A stretch of 25,282 nt of DNA. It comes from a virus (taxonomy: Duplodnaviria > Caudoviricetes). The DNA lies in the IMG/VR virus record IMGVR_UViG_3300005805_000449, positions 1-25,282 of that record, one strand, 5' to 3'. Below the pieces are notes generated by a model, which was given only the letters and a program-made list of their open reading frames with translations, was not told where the DNA came from and did no database searches. Shown in pieces: positions 12,609 through 24,617 of this stretch (its first letter is position 1; each line of letters starts with the position of its first letter). The translations under genes were made by a program, and so were the position numbers.

Positions 12609-13358
12609 ATGGCAGCTCGTCGTTATGCCCGTGACAACAAAGGGCGCTTTGCTCCTGCTGGACAAGGTGCCACGGCGCGAGGTGGGCGACTGCGAACGGC
12701 TGCCGGGAATAAACGCGCCACTCAAACAAAGGAAATTAACAAATCAAAACCATCAAATACTGTTGCTAAGCCTAAAAACCTCAAGGCTGATAAAAATGCA
12801 ATGGTAAAAATTGAGACGAATCAACGTTTGAGAGCTAGAGCGGCTGCGAGGGCTTCTGAAATGACCGCCAAACCAAGCGACAGTAACGCAACAACCGCAA
12901 AACCGACAACTCAAAAACAACGATGGGCTGCAAGGTCAGCCAAGCTAAGCGAAGCTGCTGCAAAAAACGAAGCAAAAGCCAAGCGTATGTTTGAAGCTGC
13001 GAACACCGCTGGAAATACTGCTTTTAATACGCAATCTGGACGTATTCCTGGACGCGCACGCATGAACGCACAAACTGAACGGTCCTTTCAGTTACAAGAA
13101 AAAGCCGCACAGCAAAGATCAAGAGCGGCAAACCTTGAGAGAATGGCGACCACCAATAAAGGTGACGCGGCCAAGGCAAGAACACAAAAGGCTGAAGCAA
13201 TCAAAGCGAGCCATAAAGGGCTTAAGAAGGGCGACACCATTGAAGGCACCCTATACGGGGTACGTGAAGTCGTTAAGGTGAACGCAAAAAGTGTTACCGT
13301 TAAAGGTGGAATTAAAAACTTTACGATTCCATGGGAGTTCATTAAACCCAAAACTTAA
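12609..13358 (+). CDS. Basic Ala/Lys/Arg-rich protein with RDxxGRF N-terminus and DUF3560-like C-terminal half
   Basis: YARDNKGRFA; AFNTQSG..., KGDTIEGTLYGVREVVKVNAKSVTV; family similarity from memory. Confidence 0.7.
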   Translation: MAARRYARDNKGRFAPAGQGATARGGRLRTAAGNKRATQTKEINKSKPSNTVAKPKNLKADKNAMVKIETNQRLRARAAARASEMTAKPSDSNATTAKPTTQKQRWAARSAKLSEAAAKNEAKAKRMFEAANTAGNTAFNTQSGRIPGRARMNAQTERSFQLQEKAAQQRSRAANLERMATTNKGDAAKARTQKAEAIKASHKGLKKGDTIEGTLYGVREVVKVNAKSVTVKGGIKNFTIPWEFIKPKT

Positions 13359-13658: not shown

Positions 13659-14972
13659 ATGACCCAATCAGGCGTTACACCCCGCCTGCTCAACATTGAG
13701 CAATTCAAGCGGCGTGTCAACCGCAAAGATCCTGTTGCCAATATCTACCGCAACGCCATTGATCTAAACCGCTTCAGCAATGCTGTCGCCGGCCAAATCG
13801 TTCGTGATTACAACAGCATTATCCTTAGCGCCGTTGATGACCTGCGGCGTATTGATATTGGCGTTCCTACGGCAGGTGGTGGCATCGTTAGCCCTGCATC
13901 AGTTCAGGCACAACGGTTGCGTGTAATCCTTGCTCAACTGCGGGAATCACTAGACGGGTGGACTAATCGCAGCACGGCATATGTAGCCGGCGAGCTACAA
14001 GGTTTAGCCGAACTGCAGACCGAATTTGTTACGGATCAAATCAAACTGGCGCTAACCGGTGGTGTTGTTGACGAGCGCCAATTACTGCCGTCACAGATCA
14101 ACGCCGTAGCCCAAGTCAATACGGTTCAGGTTGCCCCGAACTTTGCCGCGACCGTCGCCACAGTTGACCCGACCGATCTGAACTTCACGCTGCCGGGCAC
14201 TGGTGGTTTCAATCTGACCGCTGGCCAAGGTGCTGCCATCACGCTGCCCAATGGTGATGTAGTGGCCAAAGCATTTCGCGGCCTAGCAGAATCTCAAGCT
14301 CAGCGGTTTAACGCCATTGTGCGAACAGGCATCTTGACGGGTGAACCTACAGCGCAGATTGCCCGCCGTCTTGTTGGCAGCCTTGAATTTGGCGAACTGG
14401 CACGTACCGCAAAGCAACAGGCCTTAGCCGGCGGCGAACTAACCAAGATGGCCGACCATCAGATCATGACCGTTGTTCGCACGAGCGTTCAGCAGGTTTC
14501 CAATGCCGCTAGCCAGCAGGTTTACGAGGCCAATGAAGACATCACCAAAAAATACCGTTGGCTTGCTGCGTTGGAGTCCAGAACTTGCCCGATCTGCCGC
14601 AACCTTGACGGCAAAGAATACAAGTACGGCAAGGGTCCAACCCCGCCAGCGCACTTCAACTGCCGCTGTACAACGATTGCAATTATTGATTACAAGGGTT
14701 TGGGAATTGATCCGCCTGATTGGGGCGTTGGCCCTTCTGTTCGCGCTAGTTCAACGGGTCAGGTTCAAGGCAATGTGACCTTTGGCCAGTGGTTACAGAA
14801 ACAGCCTGCACAGGTCAAGGAAGACACCTTGGGCAAAAGTCGCGTGCCTTATTTCAACAAACTTGCCAACAAGTACGGCCCACAGGAGGCGTTGGCGCGG
14901 ATGGTGCGCGAAGACGGCAGTGAAGTTACGCTGGCTCAGTTGCAGCAGCGGTATGGACCTCCCAAAGATTAG
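13659..14972 (+). CDS. Minor head protein, MuF / SPP1 gp7 family
   Basis: VVRTSVQQVSN, WLAALESRTCPICRNLDG, PPAHFNCRCT; no obvious C-terminal toxin extension. Confidence 0.92.
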   Translation: MTQSGVTPRLLNIEQFKRRVNRKDPVANIYRNAIDLNRFSNAVAGQIVRDYNSIILSAVDDLRRIDIGVPTAGGGIVSPASVQAQRLRVILAQLRESLDGWTNRSTAYVAGELQGLAELQTEFVTDQIKLALTGGVVDERQLLPSQINAVAQVNTVQVAPNFAATVATVDPTDLNFTLPGTGGFNLTAGQGAAITLPNGDVVAKAFRGLAESQAQRFNAIVRTGILTGEPTAQIARRLVGSLEFGELARTAKQQALAGGELTKMADHQIMTVVRTSVQQVSNAASQQVYEANEDITKKYRWLAALESRTCPICRNLDGKEYKYGKGPTPPAHFNCRCTTIAIIDYKGLGIDPPDWGVGPSVRASSTGQVQGNVTFGQWLQKQPAQVKEDTLGKSRVPYFNKLANKYGPQEALARMVREDGSEVTLAQLQQRYGPPKD

Positions 14973-15243
14973 GTATTACCTAGACGGTCGCGTTTATTCC
15001 GATTGGGTGGAGGTTGAGCACGGCGAGGCAATCATTGAAGCCAGATTGCAGAAGCTGGACAATGGCGGCATTGGCTGGGTTGATAAGTCGGGCCTAAAGT
15101 TGGATCACTTGCCGTTGCCCCATGGCCAAGAAACCGACCAAAGCCGAAAAGAAGATTGGCAAGGTGATGAAGGAATACAAGGAAGGCGAACTGCACAGCG
15201 GCAAAGCCGGAAAGGGCAAAGGCCCCGTGGTCAAAAGCCGTAA
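14953..15243 (+). CDS. Hypothetical protein (96 aa, MDLPKIRYYLDGRV...)
   Basis: Internal ATG of track ORF 14782..15243; fills the gap after MuF. Confidence 0.6.
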   Translation: MDLPKIRYYLDGRVYSDWVEVEHGEAIIEARLQKLDNGGIGWVDKSGLKLDHLPLPHGQETDQSRKEDWQGDEGIQGRRTAQRQSRKGQRPRGQKP

Positions 15244-15310
15244 ACAGGCCATTGCTATTGCCCTGAGTGAAGCCGGCAAGGCCCGCAAGCAACCCAAAGG
15301 TAAAAAGTGA
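15122..15310 (+). CDS. Lys-rich small protein, DUF6496-like
   Basis: KVMKEYKEGELHSG...VKSRKQAIAIALSEA. Confidence 0.85.
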   Translation: MAKKPTKAEKKIGKVMKEYKEGELHSGKAGKGKGPVVKSRKQAIAIALSEAGKARKQPKGKK

Positions 15311-15540: not shown

Positions 15541-15716
15541 ACGGCAGAATCTGGGAAGGCAGTTGCACTTACCTCAAGTGCGCTGACGGCATGATTGAAG
15601 GCCGGTTTATTTTCCCGACGCCCAACAACCCAGAAATTCTCGGCGCATTGATGGGCAGACTGGCTGAGGGCGTTGAGGTGATCACCTGCACGGAGGACGG
15701 GGAAGATGGCGATTGA
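15537..15716 (+). CDS. Hypothetical protein (59 aa, MNGRIWEGSCTYLKC...EDGEDGD)
   Basis: Read manually; ATGA coupling; fills the gap. Confidence 0.7.
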   Translation: MNGRIWEGSCTYLKCADGMIEGRFIFPTPNNPEILGALMGRLAEGVEVITCTEDGEDGD

Positions 15717-15981
15717 ATACCGAGGCGAAAAGTTCGACGGCTACAACAAGCCGAAGCGCACGCCAAGCCACCCGACCAAATCGCACGCCGTCTTGGCTAA
15801 GGAAGGCGATCAGGTCAAACTGATCAGGTTCGGTCAACAGGGCGTGTCAGGCTCACCACCGCGAAAAGGAGAGTCAGCAGCAGACAAGGCCAGAAGGGCA
15901 TCATTCAAGGCACGCCATGCGGCCAATATCGCCAAAGGCAAAATGTCAGCGGCGTACTGGGCTGACAAGGAAAAATGGTGA
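15706..15981 (+). CDS. Basic phage protein (91 aa)
   Basis: YNKPKRTP, KLIRFGQQG, RRASFKARH...SAAYWA motifs familiar from aquatic phages; function unknown. Confidence 0.85.
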   Translation: MAIEYRGEKFDGYNKPKRTPSHPTKSHAVLAKEGDQVKLIRFGQQGVSGSPPRKGESAADKARRASFKARHAANIAKGKMSAAYWADKEKW

Positions 15982-19111: not shown

Positions 19112-19348
19112 ATGGCCGACAACGACGCTTACAACATTGGCTTTGAGTACATCAGCGACACTGCGGCCCATACCGGTCGTTTCTGGAAGCTGTATGCAGT
19201 GGCCGACGCCGTGATCAGCACTGCCACGATTCAAAACGCCAGCGGCAATACCTTTAGCTCCGTTCCTTTGGGTAAGGGCGATCAGATTGAGGGTGTGTTT
19301 ACCAGCGTGACGCTGGCTAGCGGCAAAGTCATCGCCTACAAAATCTGA
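19112..19348 (+). CDS. Small beta-rich virion protein, paralog A
   Basis: SDT..HTGR, GVFTSVTLASGKVIAYK; paralog of the next gene. Confidence 0.75.
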   Translation: MADNDAYNIGFEYISDTAAHTGRFWKLYAVADAVISTATIQNASGNTFSSVPLGKGDQIEGVFTSVTLASGKVIAYKI

Positions 19349-19599
19349 TGATGAGCGACTCCAACCTGCTGGGCATTGATTACGCCAAGGGCGCAACCTT
19401 TTTCAGCGATACCACAACGCGCACTGGCCGTTGGGCAGCAATTCATTTCACGACAAACACCCAAATTGACACAATCGTTGCTCAGAACTGGGACGGTTCC
19501 ACTTTGTCTGGTCAGTCCATGAGTTCGGCCACAACGATTTATGGGGTGTTTACCAGCATCAAACTGCAGAACGGCCACTGCGTTGCCTACAAGCTCTAA
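19348..19599 (+). CDS. Small beta-rich virion protein, paralog B
   Basis: SDT..RTGR, GVFTSIKLQNGHCVAYK. Confidence 0.75.
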   Translation: MMSDSNLLGIDYAKGATFFSDTTTRTGRWAAIHFTTNTQIDTIVAQNWDGSTLSGQSMSSATTIYGVFTSIKLQNGHCVAYKL

Positions 19600-20353: not shown

Positions 20354-20778
20354 TGGCTGCCGTCAACCTCAACACAATTCGCTCCACGATTGAAGGCCGG
20401 CTGGCAACGGAGCTGGCCTTGTCACCGGCAATTCCTGTGGTTTTCCACAACATGCCGTACAACCCAGTGAACAACGGCACTTGGGTTCAATGCCTGACTT
20501 CGTTTGGCAATAACAGTTACCTGACGATGGGCGGCACAACCGGCAGTAGCAACAGCGTTATTGGTGTTGTGGTCATCAATATTTTTTCCGCTAAGGGCGT
20601 CGGCCCCGGCGCCAACCTCACCGTTGGTAAAAGGATCCGTGATCTTTACAATAGAATCGTTGTAAGTGGGGTTCACTTTGATCCCCCGACAGGGCCCGAG
20701 GTGGTGGCTACCCCATCTCCAGAGGGTTTCTTCCAAACACAGGTCAGATTGACCTTTGAAACCTTTGAGGATCTGTAA
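20353..20778 (+). CDS. Tail terminator protein
   Basis: Size, position before tail tube, GVVVINIFSAKGVG motif. Confidence 0.78.
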   Translation: MAAVNLNTIRSTIEGRLATELALSPAIPVVFHNMPYNPVNNGTWVQCLTSFGNNSYLTMGGTTGSSNSVIGVVVINIFSAKGVGPGANLTVGKRIRDLYNRIVVSGVHFDPPTGPEVVATPSPEGFFQTQVRLTFETFEDL

Positions 20779-20780
20779 CC

Positions 20781-21197
20781 ATGGCATTTTTCCGTGGACA
20801 GCAGGGCTCCGTCAAATTCGACGACGCGGGCTCCACTGCTGCAACCATCACCAGCACCCGCTCTTGGTCTTTGACCGTTGAGAAGGAATCGCTGGATACC
20901 ACCGCTCTTGGTGCTACCTATCGGGCAAATGTTGGCGGCTTGATCAGCGGCTCTGGCACCTGCGAAGTGCTGTATACCGCCAGCAGCGCAGACGAAACCA
21001 ACGCCTTTATCGAAATGGTCAATACGGCCAACGATGAGGGTGCCGCTCTGTTTGAGCTGTATCTGGACACCACCGGCACCAAGAAAATCAGCTTTGATGG
21101 TGTTATCACCTCGGCTGAATACTCTGCCACTGTCGGTGAAATCGAAGTCATTACCCTGAACTTCGTGACCAACGGCGCCATCACTCTGGACATCTGA
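20781..21197 (+). CDS. Tail tube protein, copy 1
   Basis: RSWSLTVEKESLDTTALG..YRANVGGLISGSGT, ELYLD, ITLNFVTNG: minimal tail-tube pattern. Confidence 0.88.
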   Translation: MAFFRGQQGSVKFDDAGSTAATITSTRSWSLTVEKESLDTTALGATYRANVGGLISGSGTCEVLYTASSADETNAFIEMVNTANDEGAALFELYLDTTGTKKISFDGVITSAEYSATVGEIEVITLNFVTNGAITLDI

Positions 21198-21199
21198 TC

Positions 21200-21619
21200 A
21201 TGGCTTTCTTTCGCGGCCAACAAGGCACCGTCTTCTTTGACAAAGCTGGCAGCGGCGGTCTTTCCGAGATTGCGGCTGTGCGCTCTTGGTCTATGACCGT
21301 TGAAAAAGAGTCGTACGACGTGTCTTCTCATGGCGCCACTTACCGCGCCAACGTTGGTGGTCTGATCAGCGGGTCGGGCACCATCGAAGTCATGTACGAC
21401 GCTCCCGGTTCTGGCGACAAACTTGATCTGATCAAGGATGTGAACCAAGCCACCGACGAGGCCGATGCAGCAGTTGAGCTGTATTTGGACGAAACCGGCG
21501 GTAAAAAGATCACGGGCACCATCGTGGTGACGAGCACCGAATACAGTGCTACGGTTGGCGAGATCGAGATTGTTACCCTCAATTTCGTTTCTAGCGGAAC
21601 CCTGACTCTGAGCATCTAA
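21200..21619 (+). CDS. Tail tube protein, copy 2
   Basis: About 89 of 140 positions identical to copy 1 by manual alignment. Confidence 0.88.
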   Translation: MAFFRGQQGTVFFDKAGSGGLSEIAAVRSWSMTVEKESYDVSSHGATYRANVGGLISGSGTIEVMYDAPGSGDKLDLIKDVNQATDEADAAVELYLDETGGKKITGTIVVTSTEYSATVGEIEIVTLNFVSSGTLTLSI

Positions 21620-21978
21620 TGCCCGCCGCAAATCAGCGCCCTGTTGATCTTCTCACTGGGGCGTTTGACCTGAACCAGCGTCGTCGGTTTGACATTAAGG
21701 GAGCTGACGGCGCTGTTGTTTTGTCGCTGTATTTCAAGCCGATCACCCGTGCTGACCGGAAGCGGGCAACGACTTTGGCGGGCAGCGAAGAGGCTCTGGA
21801 GATCAGCACGCAGATGCTGTGCCAGATGGCTGAGCTTGAGGATGGCACCAAGGCCTTTGCTGCTGCAGACGCCGCCAAACTGCAACGCGAACTGCCTGAA
21901 TCGGTGCTGAATGAGCTGGAGCTGTTCCTGTTTGGCTTGGGTGCTCCGCCGCTGCTGGACGAAGCAAAAAAAGACTAG
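21619..21978 (+). CDS. Tail assembly chaperone (lambda gpG analogue)
   Basis: Between tube and tape measure; ends GCA AAA AAA GAC TAG. Confidence 0.85.
   Translation: MPAANQRPVDLLTGAFDLNQRRRFDIKGADGAVVLSLYFKPITRADRKRATTLAGSEEALEISTQMLCQMAELEDGTKAFAAADAAKLQRELPESVLNELELFLFGLGAPPLLDEAKKD
21966..21972 (+). other. Programmed -1 ribosomal frameshift site A AAA AAA
   Basis: In-phase slippery heptamer just before the chaperone stop; -1 frame open to 22157. Confidence 0.82.
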
Positions 21979-22185: not shown

Positions 22186-24273
22186 GTGGCCGTAGCTGTC
22201 GTTGACGTACAAGTAAATAGTCGTGGCGCGGTTGATCAGCTTCGCAATATCAACAATGCTTCAAAACAGGCACAGGCCGGCATTAGTGGCTTAACGGCTG
22301 CAGTTGGCAGGCTTGCGGCTGGGTTTTCTGCGATTCAAGCGGCGCGGTTCGTCTTCGCCAAAACGGCGGAAATAGAAAGTCAAACAAAGAGCCTGCAGGT
22401 ATTGACTGGCAGCGTGCAGCAGGCCAAGCAAATCATTCAGGAGTTGCAACAGCTTGGCGCCGTAACGCCATTTACTAGCACCGAACTAATTGACGCTGCA
22501 AAGCGGTTGCAGGCATTCGGCGTTGAGGCCAATGCAGTTGTTGAAACAACCCGCCGTCTAGCCGATGTTTCGGGTGCAACTGGCGCCGAACTGCAGGGGT
22601 TAGTCACCGCCTACGGTCAGGTGCAGGCCAAAGGACGCTTGCAGGGCGAAGAGCTGCTGCAATTCCAAGAGCGTGGCATCGCACTGCAAAAAGAACTGCA
22701 GCGCATGTACGGAATGAGTGGGGAAGAATTTAGGAAGGCGTTGGAGAAAGGAAGGTTTAGCGCCAAAGCTGTTGAGCAAGCCATTAAAAATTTGACAAGT
22801 GCTGGAGGTAAATATGCCGATGGTGCTGTTGCTCAATCAACAACGCTTCAAGGTAAATTCAGCACTTTGCAAGATGGCGTTGATGCCTTGGCGAGAGAAA
22901 TCGGCAATACCCTTGCGCCAGCATTAAAAATTGCGTTGGATGATTTAACTAACTTTGTAAACGGATTTGTTCAGGGCTTGCGATATATGCAGGCTCAATA
23001 CAGTGCGTTTTTGGCTAGTTTGCGTGGTAAAAATGCAGATGAATTGCAAGGGCAAATTGCAGGCATCAACAAATTTATTGCGGCGAACCAAGGCCAGCTA
23101 AATAAAATCCGCCCCGGCAGCCTTGCCGAAAAGCAAGTGCAAGCAAAATTGGTTGAATTGAGAAAACTCCGTGGCAGCCTGCAAAAAGATTTAGACAAAA
23201 CACTTGGCCTTGTTGCTCCGCAGGGCAGATCAACCCTTTTACCTACCACTCGTCCCGCTACAGGTGCACCGCCGGCATTGCTTGGCGAAACTGGAGGGGG
23301 TCAAGGTTCGTCGAAAGCCGCAAATGCTGCGAAACGATTGGCGGAAGAATTAAGACGGTCGGTTGAACAAGGCGACAATATGGGCCGTGAGCTTAGTCGT
23401 CAAATCTTGCTTCTAAACAACATTACCGACCAAGAGGAAGAACGCTATCGAATACAGTTTGAGTACGAAGATCGCCTCCGTGAAATTAACGAGCTAAAAA
23501 ATAAAGAGCAGCAGGTAAATCTAAGGGCCTTAAATGAGGAGATTAGGCGGCTTGAGCTTCAAAAATTAGCCACCGAAGAACTTAAAAAGCAAAACGAAGA
23601 ATTTTACAAGCGTGCTGGCCTCGTCGCCCAGATTTACGGCGCTGGCGCTGGTGGATTCCGTACTGATATTGATCTGTTGGGACAGCAGCAGAAGGCATTG
23701 GACGAGGTGCTTAAGAAATACCCGCAGATTGGTGAGGCCGCTACCGCCGCCAGTCAACTTGCTACGCAGGGGACGATGGAAATGATTAACGGCACAAAGA
23801 CAGCGCAGCAAGCATTTGCCGACTTCCTTAACAGCATCGTTGATATTTTGATGAAGTCTGCGGCGCAGATGATTGCCCAATACATTGCCATTGGTGTTGC
23901 TCGCAGCTTTGCGGGCGTTGGCGGTCTATTCAGTGGTGCGGGCCCCGTTCAGTTTCCGGGCAGCACAAGTGTTGGCGTAAGTGGCTTTGGTTTACCCAAC
24001 CTGATGGCTCGTGCAGGCGGCGGCTCAGTGATGGCTGGCCAGCCTTATGTGGTTGGCGAAAATGGCCCCGAACTATTTATGCCCGGTCGTAGCGGTGGCA
24101 TTGCTCCTGCTGGTTCGTTTGGCGGTGGAAGCAATATTGTGGTGAACGTAGACGCGAATGGCTCTAACGTGCAGGGCGACGGCGCACAGGCCAACGCACT
24201 CGGTAAGGCCATTGGGATTGCCGTTCAGCAAGAATTGATTAAACAGAAGCGTCCCGGAGGCTTGCTCGCCTAA
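22186..24273 (+). CDS. Tape measure protein (695 aa)
   Basis: TPFTSTELIDAAKRLQAFG, YGQVQAKGRLQGEEL, ARAGGGSV..GQPYVVGENGPELFMP, RPGGLL terminus. Confidence 0.95.
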   Translation: MAVAVVDVQVNSRGAVDQLRNINNASKQAQAGISGLTAAVGRLAAGFSAIQAARFVFAKTAEIESQTKSLQVLTGSVQQAKQIIQELQQLGAVTPFTSTELIDAAKRLQAFGVEANAVVETTRRLADVSGATGAELQGLVTAYGQVQAKGRLQGEELLQFQERGIALQKELQRMYGMSGEEFRKALEKGRFSAKAVEQAIKNLTSAGGKYADGAVAQSTTLQGKFSTLQDGVDALAREIGNTLAPALKIALDDLTNFVNGFVQGLRYMQAQYSAFLASLRGKNADELQGQIAGINKFIAANQGQLNKIRPGSLAEKQVQAKLVELRKLRGSLQKDLDKTLGLVAPQGRSTLLPTTRPATGAPPALLGETGGGQGSSKAANAAKRLAEELRRSVEQGDNMGRELSRQILLLNNITDQEEERYRIQFEYEDRLREINELKNKEQQVNLRALNEEIRRLELQKLATEELKKQNEEFYKRAGLVAQIYGAGAGGFRTDIDLLGQQQKALDEVLKKYPQIGEAATAASQLATQGTMEMINGTKTAQQAFADFLNSIVDILMKSAAQMIAQYIAIGVARSFAGVGGLFSGAGPVQFPGSTSVGVSGFGLPNLMARAGGGSVMAGQPYVVGENGPELFMPGRSGGIAPAGSFGGGSNIVVNVDANGSNVQGDGAQANALGKAIGIAVQQELIKQKRPGGLLA

Positions 24274-24617
24274 TGGCTACTTTCCCCGCTATCACGGCCA
24301 CCTACGGCGCCACAAAGAACAATCAGCCTGTTGTTCGCACGGTGCAGTTTGGAGACGGTTACCAGCAACGCCTGACCTATGGCTTGAATCAAAATCCAAA
24401 GTCATGGGATCTGACGTGGCAGAACATTACTGAAACCAACGCTGACACCATCGAAACCTTCCTGAATAACCGCGCTGCTGATAACGCCAGCTTTGATTGG
24501 ACACCACCTGACGAGGCAACGTCTTACAAGTGGATTTGCCCGCAATGGAATAAAACCATCACGTACAACAACCGCGCCACTATTACAGCTACGTTCCAAC
24601 AAGTATTTGAACCCTGA
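24273..24617 (+). CDS. Distal tail protein, lambda gpM-like
   Basis: PVVRTVQFGDGYQQR..GLN, FDWTPP, ATFQQVFEP. Confidence 0.92.
   Translation: MATFPAITATYGATKNNQPVVRTVQFGDGYQQRLTYGLNQNPKSWDLTWQNITETNADTIETFLNNRAADNASFDWTPPDEATSYKWICPQWNKTITYNNRATITATFQQVFEP

Follow-up and report, generated by a model that had tools for sequence, protein, structure and literature searches.

Paired tail tube genes in a cyanophage-like virus group as candidates for a heteromeric tail shaft

Two adjacent genes for tail tube proteins, here called A and B, were found in a 25-kb virus record (25,282 nucleotides, analyzed as a whole and referred to below as the window) whose nearest cultured relatives are cyanophages. 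The pair is a real, conserved feature that is widespread in an abundant aquatic cyanophage-like group, and the two proteins likely co-polymerize at about 1:1 along the whole non-contractile tail, with their loop tips docking crosswise between rings. The tail tube is the textbook example of a homopolymer. The case for a heterotypic 1:1 tube draws on co-retention of the two genes, purifying selection on both, a codon score, a crossed combination of residues at the loop tip and at site 26, concerted change of the two proteins, and the precedent of phage P74-26. In the proposed mechanism, coupled A and B genes would give similar amounts of the two proteins, which would polymerize on the tape measure; the hydrophobic tip of A would enter the socket of B in the next ring, the polar tip of B would enter the socket of A, and stacking would be obligately heterotypic.

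Two intact open reading frames of 138 and 139 aa, 2 nt apart, had been described from the letters of the sequence alone, and both are present (Table 1). The operon follows a lambda-like order of terminase, portal, scaffold, capsid, adaptor, closure, neck, terminator, A, B, chaperone, tape measure, gpM-like, and gpL-like genes, which places A and B between the terminator and the chaperone/tape measure genes, the slot of the siphovirus tube gene. No match to a sheath family was found among the genes scanned in the window. The 2-nt spacer makes translational coupling of A and B likely, and the start of the chaperone gene overlaps the stop of B. The chaperone is presumably gpG-like, and we take its slippery run and open -1 frame to be the gpG/gpGT arrangement. 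The small phrog_34166 tandem pair of the window is represented by a single gene in some relatives.

Table 1. Positions of the tube genes, their marker residues, and neighboring features in the window
Feature	Position	Strand	Remarks
Small, very basic ORFs	12609-13358, 15122-15310, 15706-15981		near portal/head genes
Small tandem pair, 78 + 83 aa	19112-19348 and 19348-19599		both phrog_34166; between adaptor and head closure
Tail terminator gene, 141 aa	20353-20778	+	phrog_179
GAGGA, conserved	20767-20771	+	within the terminator's final codons, upstream of A
Tail tube gene A, 138 aa	20781-21197	+	ATG start; PHROG 10528
A marker T26	20856-20858
A marker L43	20907-20909		hydrophobic loop tip
A marker Y-T-A-S-x-x-D-E-T			motif before helix
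A-B spacer, 2 nt	21198-21199	+	TGA-TC-ATG
Tail tube gene B, 139 aa	21200-21619	+	ATG start; PHROG 10528
B markers K15 and E98			K15 is an insertion
B marker V27	21278-21280
B marker H44	21329-21331		polar loop tip
Tail assembly chaperone	21619-21978	+	by position and slippery site; no named family match; phrog_20784 (unknown function)
Slippery run A AAA AAA	21966-21972		end of chaperone gene; -1 frame open to 22157, ~60 codons
Tape measure protein, 695 aa	22186-24273	+	PHROG tape measure families and Pfam TMP_3
Lambda gpM-like minor tail (distal tail) protein, single gene	24273-24617	+	phrog_14 and Pfam PF05939

A and B are members of the siphovirus tube family. Both match the phrog_10528 "major tail protein" (E 1e-22 for A and 2e-18 for B), B matches PF06199 below the curated cut-off, and A gave no Pfam match at E 0.01. 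The AlphaFold model of A (pLDDT 74) has a helix at 71-80 and its best structural match to tube proteins reaches Z 12.5; for the AlphaFold model of B (pLDDT 74) the top Foldseek matches are all tube proteins, the helix region being poorly defined in the model. Both models show a beta-sandwich with a long loop, and the N-terminal arm, the long loop, and all strands are kept in both proteins. Structural matches to R4C (8GTB) and RcGTA were obtained with Z 10.7 and 12.1 and rmsd 4.1 and 3.4 over 122 and 124 residues, respectively. The R4C tube protein is also the sole sequence match in the PDB (E 0.002), and its M38 aligns with L43 of A and H44 of B.

BLASTP aligns A and B with 87/139 identities (63%) and one gap, in agreement with the ~63 percent first estimated by hand; 252/414 nucleotides are identical. 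The sequence blocks first described as invariant are identical in the window's two proteins but vary across the family. Residues that are fixed in a paralogue-specific manner concentrate in the loop and the start of the helix, with others at 10, 15, 23, 25-27, and 97/98. The A motif before the helix (Table 1) occurs in 162/162 A proteins and the motif Y-D-A-P-x-x-G-D-K-L-D in 161/162 B proteins. The earlier suggestion that the A/B differences lie at the surface stood in part; they are partly exposed, but they also fall on the loop tip and the putative socket, which would form a stacking contact.

To gather relatives, IMG/VR was queried with A, B, the B protein of S-H1, and the MED4-184 protein (best 80 loci each) and scanned with an N-terminal pattern, from which 120 of about 770 stretches were taken. 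After removal of duplicates and truncated loci, at least 162 pair loci and at least 86 single-gene loci remained. Seven records of the GenBank phage set match A; Synechococcus phage S-H1 has the pair, and MED4-184, MED4-117, and P-HS2 have one tube gene each. A scan of prokaryote genomes yielded three loci, none informative. Across 432 loci, repeats of the same contig included, a second tube gene follows the A-type gene in 241/241 cases with at least 150 nt downstream, and a tube gene precedes the B-type gene in 250/250 with at least 150 nt upstream. Of 146 unique pair loci, 144 have the 2-nt spacer, as does every one of the 30 further pairs listed. The proteins of complete pairs are 138-140 aa long without a C-terminal extension, and in every complete pair A ends in a stop and B lies in another frame. 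A fused A-B protein was sought among 4468 longer candidates, and the one match is a half-length chimera, a weak negative.

In quick phylogenetic trees, A and B form separate clades (SH-aLRT 95 and 99), with the stem of B longer than that of A (0.36 versus 0.17) and A-B identities of 45-66% across representative pairs. The grouping of A with B against the two single-gene groups has a support of only 55, and FastTree placed A with the singles. Relatives thus keep both copies as separate clades, as the sequence-only reading had proposed to check, and the pair was never seen split. The pair arose once, so the 162 loci are not independent. The close relatives L007, L098, and L110 carry different combinations of A and B alleles (e.g. 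99% identity to the window in A and 85% in B, or 82% in A and 94% in B), a sign of recombination inside the pair.

Synonymous sites between A and B are saturated (pS 0.75, pN 0.27), and 49 of the 82 codons for identical residues differ. This synonymous difference is no greater than that between distant orthologues (0.53 versus 0.54) and therefore shows age and purifying selection, nothing more; its interpretation as selection against recombination between the copies was rejected as ordinary saturation. When comparisons with dS of 0.1 to 1.5 were kept, median dN/dS against orthologues was 0.068 for A (86 usable of 161) and 0.050 for B (94 of 161). These values of 0.05-0.07, rather than near 1, support the earlier claim that both copies are under selection. 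Recent gene conversion was rejected, with the longest shared run at 9-16 nt (30 pairs sampled) and no synonymous homogenization near parallel changes; conversion at an earlier time may have occurred. Saturation, dN/dS, and the two clades all stand against a recent or neutral duplication, and an assembly artifact is ruled out by the same pair in the cultured phage S-H1, by the distinct loci (at least 162), and by exactly two tube copies in 5/5 near-complete pair genomes; the probability left to these explanations is negligible.

The crossed residue combination was examined in a wider-family set of 162 representatives (150 + 12), which gave 174 aligned segments, 113 of them with both sites; exclusion of 10 A/B-like entries and 7 with other residue classes left 96 representatives for the covariation count. 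Outside A/B, a hydrophobic loop tip (site 43) pairs with a hydrophobic site 26 (47 versus 7) and an H/Q tip with T/S at site 26 (34 versus 8). The association (p 1e-11) ranks at the top of 137 columns and at the top of 442 column pairs, the latter drawn from columns at which A and B differ. Single-tube loci follow the same rule in 86/86 cases (79 polar tip with T, 7 M with V), and in one lineage of the MED4-type singles Q gave way to M at the tip as T26 became V (7/7 versus 51/51). A combines an L/M tip with T26 in 162/162, and B an H/Q tip with V/I in 162/162. By this pattern each paralogue appears mismatched with itself and matched with the other, the tip of A fitting the site of B and the tip of B that of A.

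A contact within one chain is expected to come out in cis, as do the cross-strand neighbors 12 and 22; the site 26-43 pair comes out in trans. In the monomer model of A, the two sites lie at opposite ends of the long 15-residue strand 26-40, from which we infer that the contact must be between subunits, most simply between rings, so that sites 43 and 26 would meet there. Several observations qualify the covariation. It is partly phylogenetic: the tree carries no more than 11 and 8 changes, and of 10 independent contrasting pairs, 4 follow the rule, 1 runs against it, and 5 are tied. The rule is broken by 15/96 representatives, which may come from loci with one or two tube genes. Four rule breakers were used as queries: two returned no locus, one only ordinary A-B loci, and one a locus (L454) that is single within 2.5 kb. 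This locus carries an A-like tube gene with a two-residue loop insertion (L454:2501-2920), has no second tube gene within 2.5 kb, and has only one other plus-strand ORF of 70 aa or more, which suggests that a mismatched homomer may be viable. Across the wide family, sites 105/107 vary with site 26, which they do not in the M-tip singles or in the B proteins of the S-H1 clade. A link between the tip and site 66, in the loop before the helix, was dropped (p 0.11); M tips go with D-N-A in MED4-type singles.

The terminator was compared with the tube at the same loop. In one MED4-type lineage (terminator genes of L219, L221-L223, L225, L228, and L230), the loop tips of terminator and tube change class together, as one shared change. 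Among the pair phages this tip of the terminator has alternated between M/L and Q five times or more, and the tips of A and B never change class. Such toggling fits either of the two lattices weighed below. The tip class of the terminator showed no pattern with tape-measure length (ring parity), for which start calls are unreliable.

Whether both proteins are made in quantity was approached through a codon score trained for each clade on capsid versus tape-measure/neck/Dit genes, with terminator, closure, and adaptor held out; neck proteins served as a low-copy class on their typical copy numbers. In the window's clade the score was +0.04 for A, +0.01 for B, +0.10 for the small gene after the capsid gene, -0.04 for the chaperone, and -0.24 to -0.27 for the held-out adaptor, closure, and terminator. 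B scored above the terminator in 87/87 loci, head closure in 79/79, and the adaptor in 54/54 of this clade. A second clade agrees with this pattern; in the S-H1 clade the signal is weak, with B above the terminator in only 28/44. A scores above B in 68/95, 41/48, and 10/14 loci. A simple NNC/NNT codon index did not distinguish high-copy genes from low-copy ones. An SD-like word precedes A in 156/162 pair loci, B in none, and the sole tube gene of single-gene phages in 0/86. The chaperone start overlaps the stop of B in 155/161 loci and an SD-like word of its own is absent in 161/161, so the chaperone probably depends on ribosomes leaving B. Judged by these proxies, in loci that are related to one another, B is probably translated at a high level and expression of A and B would be near-equal. 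No promoter or terminator excess and no notable RNA fold was found at the starts of A, B, or the chaperone; contigs from RNA libraries touch both A and B at low depth and neither rank expression nor indicate habitat.

The roles of A and B are not fully symmetric: an SD-like word is present only before A, the codon score of A exceeds that of B, and the stem of B is longer. The first two points would also suit a shaft in which both proteins occur unordered or unequally, with A as the major subunit and B interspersed or in blocks, as would the faster evolution of B between clades (conservation of the long loop between clades is 0.44 for B versus 0.63 for A) and its invariant outer motif, a private motif that would bind a partner or tune flexibility. 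The tail of SPP1, with gp17.1 and gp17.1* at 3:1, is a precedent (excerpts of PMC8718954). This explanation, which we hold to be unlikely, leaves unexplained the tip/site-26 combination of A, found in 0/86 single-tube loci and complemented by B in every pair; B is moreover without a decoration domain, and neither gene was seen lost.

Less likely again is that A is the major tube protein and B forms one dedicated ring, at the tip or under the terminator. The longer branch of B and its lack of an SD-like word are compatible with this, and T5 p140, a duplicate of pb6, forms a single ring (excerpts of PMC10038345). The codon score of B, however, groups with those of high-copy genes and not with the terminator, head-closure, and adaptor genes, although this is a proxy and is weak in the S-H1 clade. 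The long loop of B also tracks that of A across clades, whereas the loop of a first ring docks on Dit (excerpts of PMC7296036). p140 is only 9% identical to pb6 compared with 45-66% between A and B, and the tube-like proteins in the tip module of a relative show much greater divergence (E 5e-16 and 2e-4). An all-A shaft, finally, would repeat the disfavored tip/site-26 mismatch at every layer. The dedicated first or last ring raised in the sequence-only reading is consequently disfavored.

In solved tubes the long loop is the main ring-to-ring contact (excerpts of PMC8718954 and PMC7296036). Between A and B, identity in this loop (36-56) is 0.57 within a clade versus 0.43 across clades (p 0.011, five clades); in eight other regions the same comparison was not significant. 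Between clades 0 and 2, 10 columns are concerted and 1 is crossed. On a tree of 140 pairs, 17 identical same-branch substitutions occur in A and B, as against 4.7 expected from a branch shuffle (p 0.0005) and 10.6 from a type-preserving shuffle (p 0.009); this count is inflated by recombination, and parsimony created at least one of the events (site 63) as an artifact. Synonymous sites near the parallel changes are not homogenized (0.64 versus 0.59), and the Y4F change of the window's subgroup runs from TAC/TAT to TTC/TTT (3/4), which together indicate that at least some are parallel mutations. The concerted change suggests to us that A and B share the same docking partners.

These results support the heteromeric tube first proposed for the pair as far as co-retention, separate clades, selection, and the crossed tip and site 26 are concerned; its architecture can be drawn in more than one way. 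We incline towards a shaft of two separately encoded subunits in which obligate alternation would be enforced by the swapped tip and socket residues, whether as an unfused stage of the T5/P74-26 type or as an A6/B6 tube. The preferred lattice, put forward tentatively, consists of mixed A3B3 rings in which each layer is offset by one subunit, as an unfused counterpart of P74-26 and T5; on an equation that is our own, the 39.1 degree twist of T5 would correspond to 60 minus about 21 degrees. Alternating A6 and B6 rings are only slightly less probable; they would follow automatically from the template offered by the single-gene Dit. The lateral contact of R4C (D67/E70 with R91) maps onto residues changed on both sides in B (K74, E98) and unchanged in A, which fits alternating A6/B6 rings, the mapping being soft because it crosses a deletion. 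A prediction of the complex of three A and three B subunits scored 0.22, 0.39, and 0.20 against a mark of 0.32, with no contacts, and counts neither way.

Single-tube relatives have a further small gene. An ORF of ~50 aa, phrog_38229 (MED4-184 CPAG_00053; L002:5819-5971), directly precedes the single tube gene in 83/86 loci and moves with it (e.g. L337, L341, and L319); one complete single-tube genome is without it. It was present in 0/162 pair loci and 0/9 near-complete pair genomes, with the positive control found, and is likely a tube-associated factor. Its replacement by the pair would allow B to have taken an accessory role, so that one copy would not be a virion subunit and would instead be an assembly regulator, a decoy against host defense, or a condition-specific alternative tube. 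This is very improbable, given that both proteins retain the arm, loop, and strands of the fold, change in parallel, and cross reciprocally, and that the small ORF shows no significant resemblance to B (E 0.22). At the same value, the ORF was also rejected as a remnant of B.

In a low-GC sister group (L319, L322, L335, L351, L370, L387, and others; G001), the only tube gene sits between terminase and portal, flanked by small basic ORFs similar to those near the window's head genes, and the tail operon runs terminator-chaperone-tape measure without a tube gene. Neither one complete genome with a relocated gene nor the MED4-type genomes proved to hide a second copy in these "single" relatives. 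L447 (G002) has two distant tube-like ORFs (14295-14726 and 14730-15224) in the tail-tip module after a 1498-aa protein, and these are candidates for dedicated tip rings.

An origin by duplication followed by fusion is generally assumed for the two-domain tubes of T5 and P74-26, and no unfused stage was found described in the literature searched. If the proposed tube is correct, this lineage offers such a stage or, alternatively, an alternating-ring tube. The group includes a cultured member (S-H1) and close single-gene controls (MED4-184), and 63% identity with few named differences would make it a clean system for the passage from homomer to obligate heteromer. Ordered protein nanotubes could then be specified by a simple code of tip and site 26. 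Phage tail maps averaged helically with C6 symmetry would not reveal such heterogeneity.

Among known systems, the closest is S-H1 (MK105819.1), in which AZB50577 and AZB50578 form the same tandem pair, 2 nt apart and in the same gene order as in the window. These proteins are 70% identical to A and 64% to B, and both are annotated "hypothetical protein"; no account of the S-H1 tail was found in the literature searched. The major tail proteins of MED4-184, MED4-117, and P-HS2 belong to the same family (PHROG 10528) and occupy the same slot, with 48% identity to A and 36% to B. In these phages a single tube gene follows the 50-aa ORF, and tip and site 26 are matched within one chain, unlike in A and B; a second match in MED4-117, partial and located where the record ends, was taken for an end overlap. 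The R4C and RcGTA tube proteins share the minimal fold of A and B but are homohexameric products of a single gene; the R4C tip residue M38 inserts into a pocket of the next ring (excerpts of PMC10276861). The second tail protein of SPP1 arises from a frameshift that adds a C-terminal Ig-like extension, whereas A and B are two separate genes with no extension.

Phages with more than one tube gene were known before. In siphoviruses of the actinobacteriophage clusters AU, AM, BI, CC, DJ, and EL, a conserved duplicate of the major tail gene has been annotated (excerpts of bioRxiv 2020.01.10.891226, PMC11080557, and PMC10652937); in the two phages for which these excerpts give gene numbers (18/23 and 17/19) the duplicates are non-adjacent, unlike A and B, a comparison made by annotation alone. 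Mixed rings of unfused paralogues are described for Hcp2-Hcp3 of the Bacteroides fragilis T6SS (PDB 9VND), at 3:3 and 4:2 (excerpts of PMC13035841), and for DTP1/DTP2 of Nocturne116, alternating 3+3 (excerpts of PMC13595954). In those excerpts the rings are minor, cargo-carrying or terminal structures, whereas the proposed A/B tube would be a whole phage tail shaft. No unfused alternating tail shaft and no tail of two or heteromeric tube proteins was found in the literature searched, which covered few subscription papers.

T5 p140, a baseplate tube protein, is like B a separate tube paralogue, but the excerpts consulted (PMC10038345) place it in one ring only, where it anchors a collar, whereas B looks high-copy. 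P74-26 gp93 and T5 pb6 have a duplicated tube domain, as do A and B taken together, but theirs is fused and trimeric. The two domains of P74-26 are 16% identical, compared with 63% for the separate A and B genes, and domain 1 of one ring sits on domain 2 of the next through loop-in-socket contacts (excerpts of PMC10034513 and PMC5717097). Of the T5-like intermediate first suggested for the pair, the structural analogy stands, but the search turned up no fused A-B protein and the virus is not closely related to T5. By this analogy, the A/B system would work like the pseudo-hexamer of T5 and P74-26 but would not be a member of that class, its genes being unfused.
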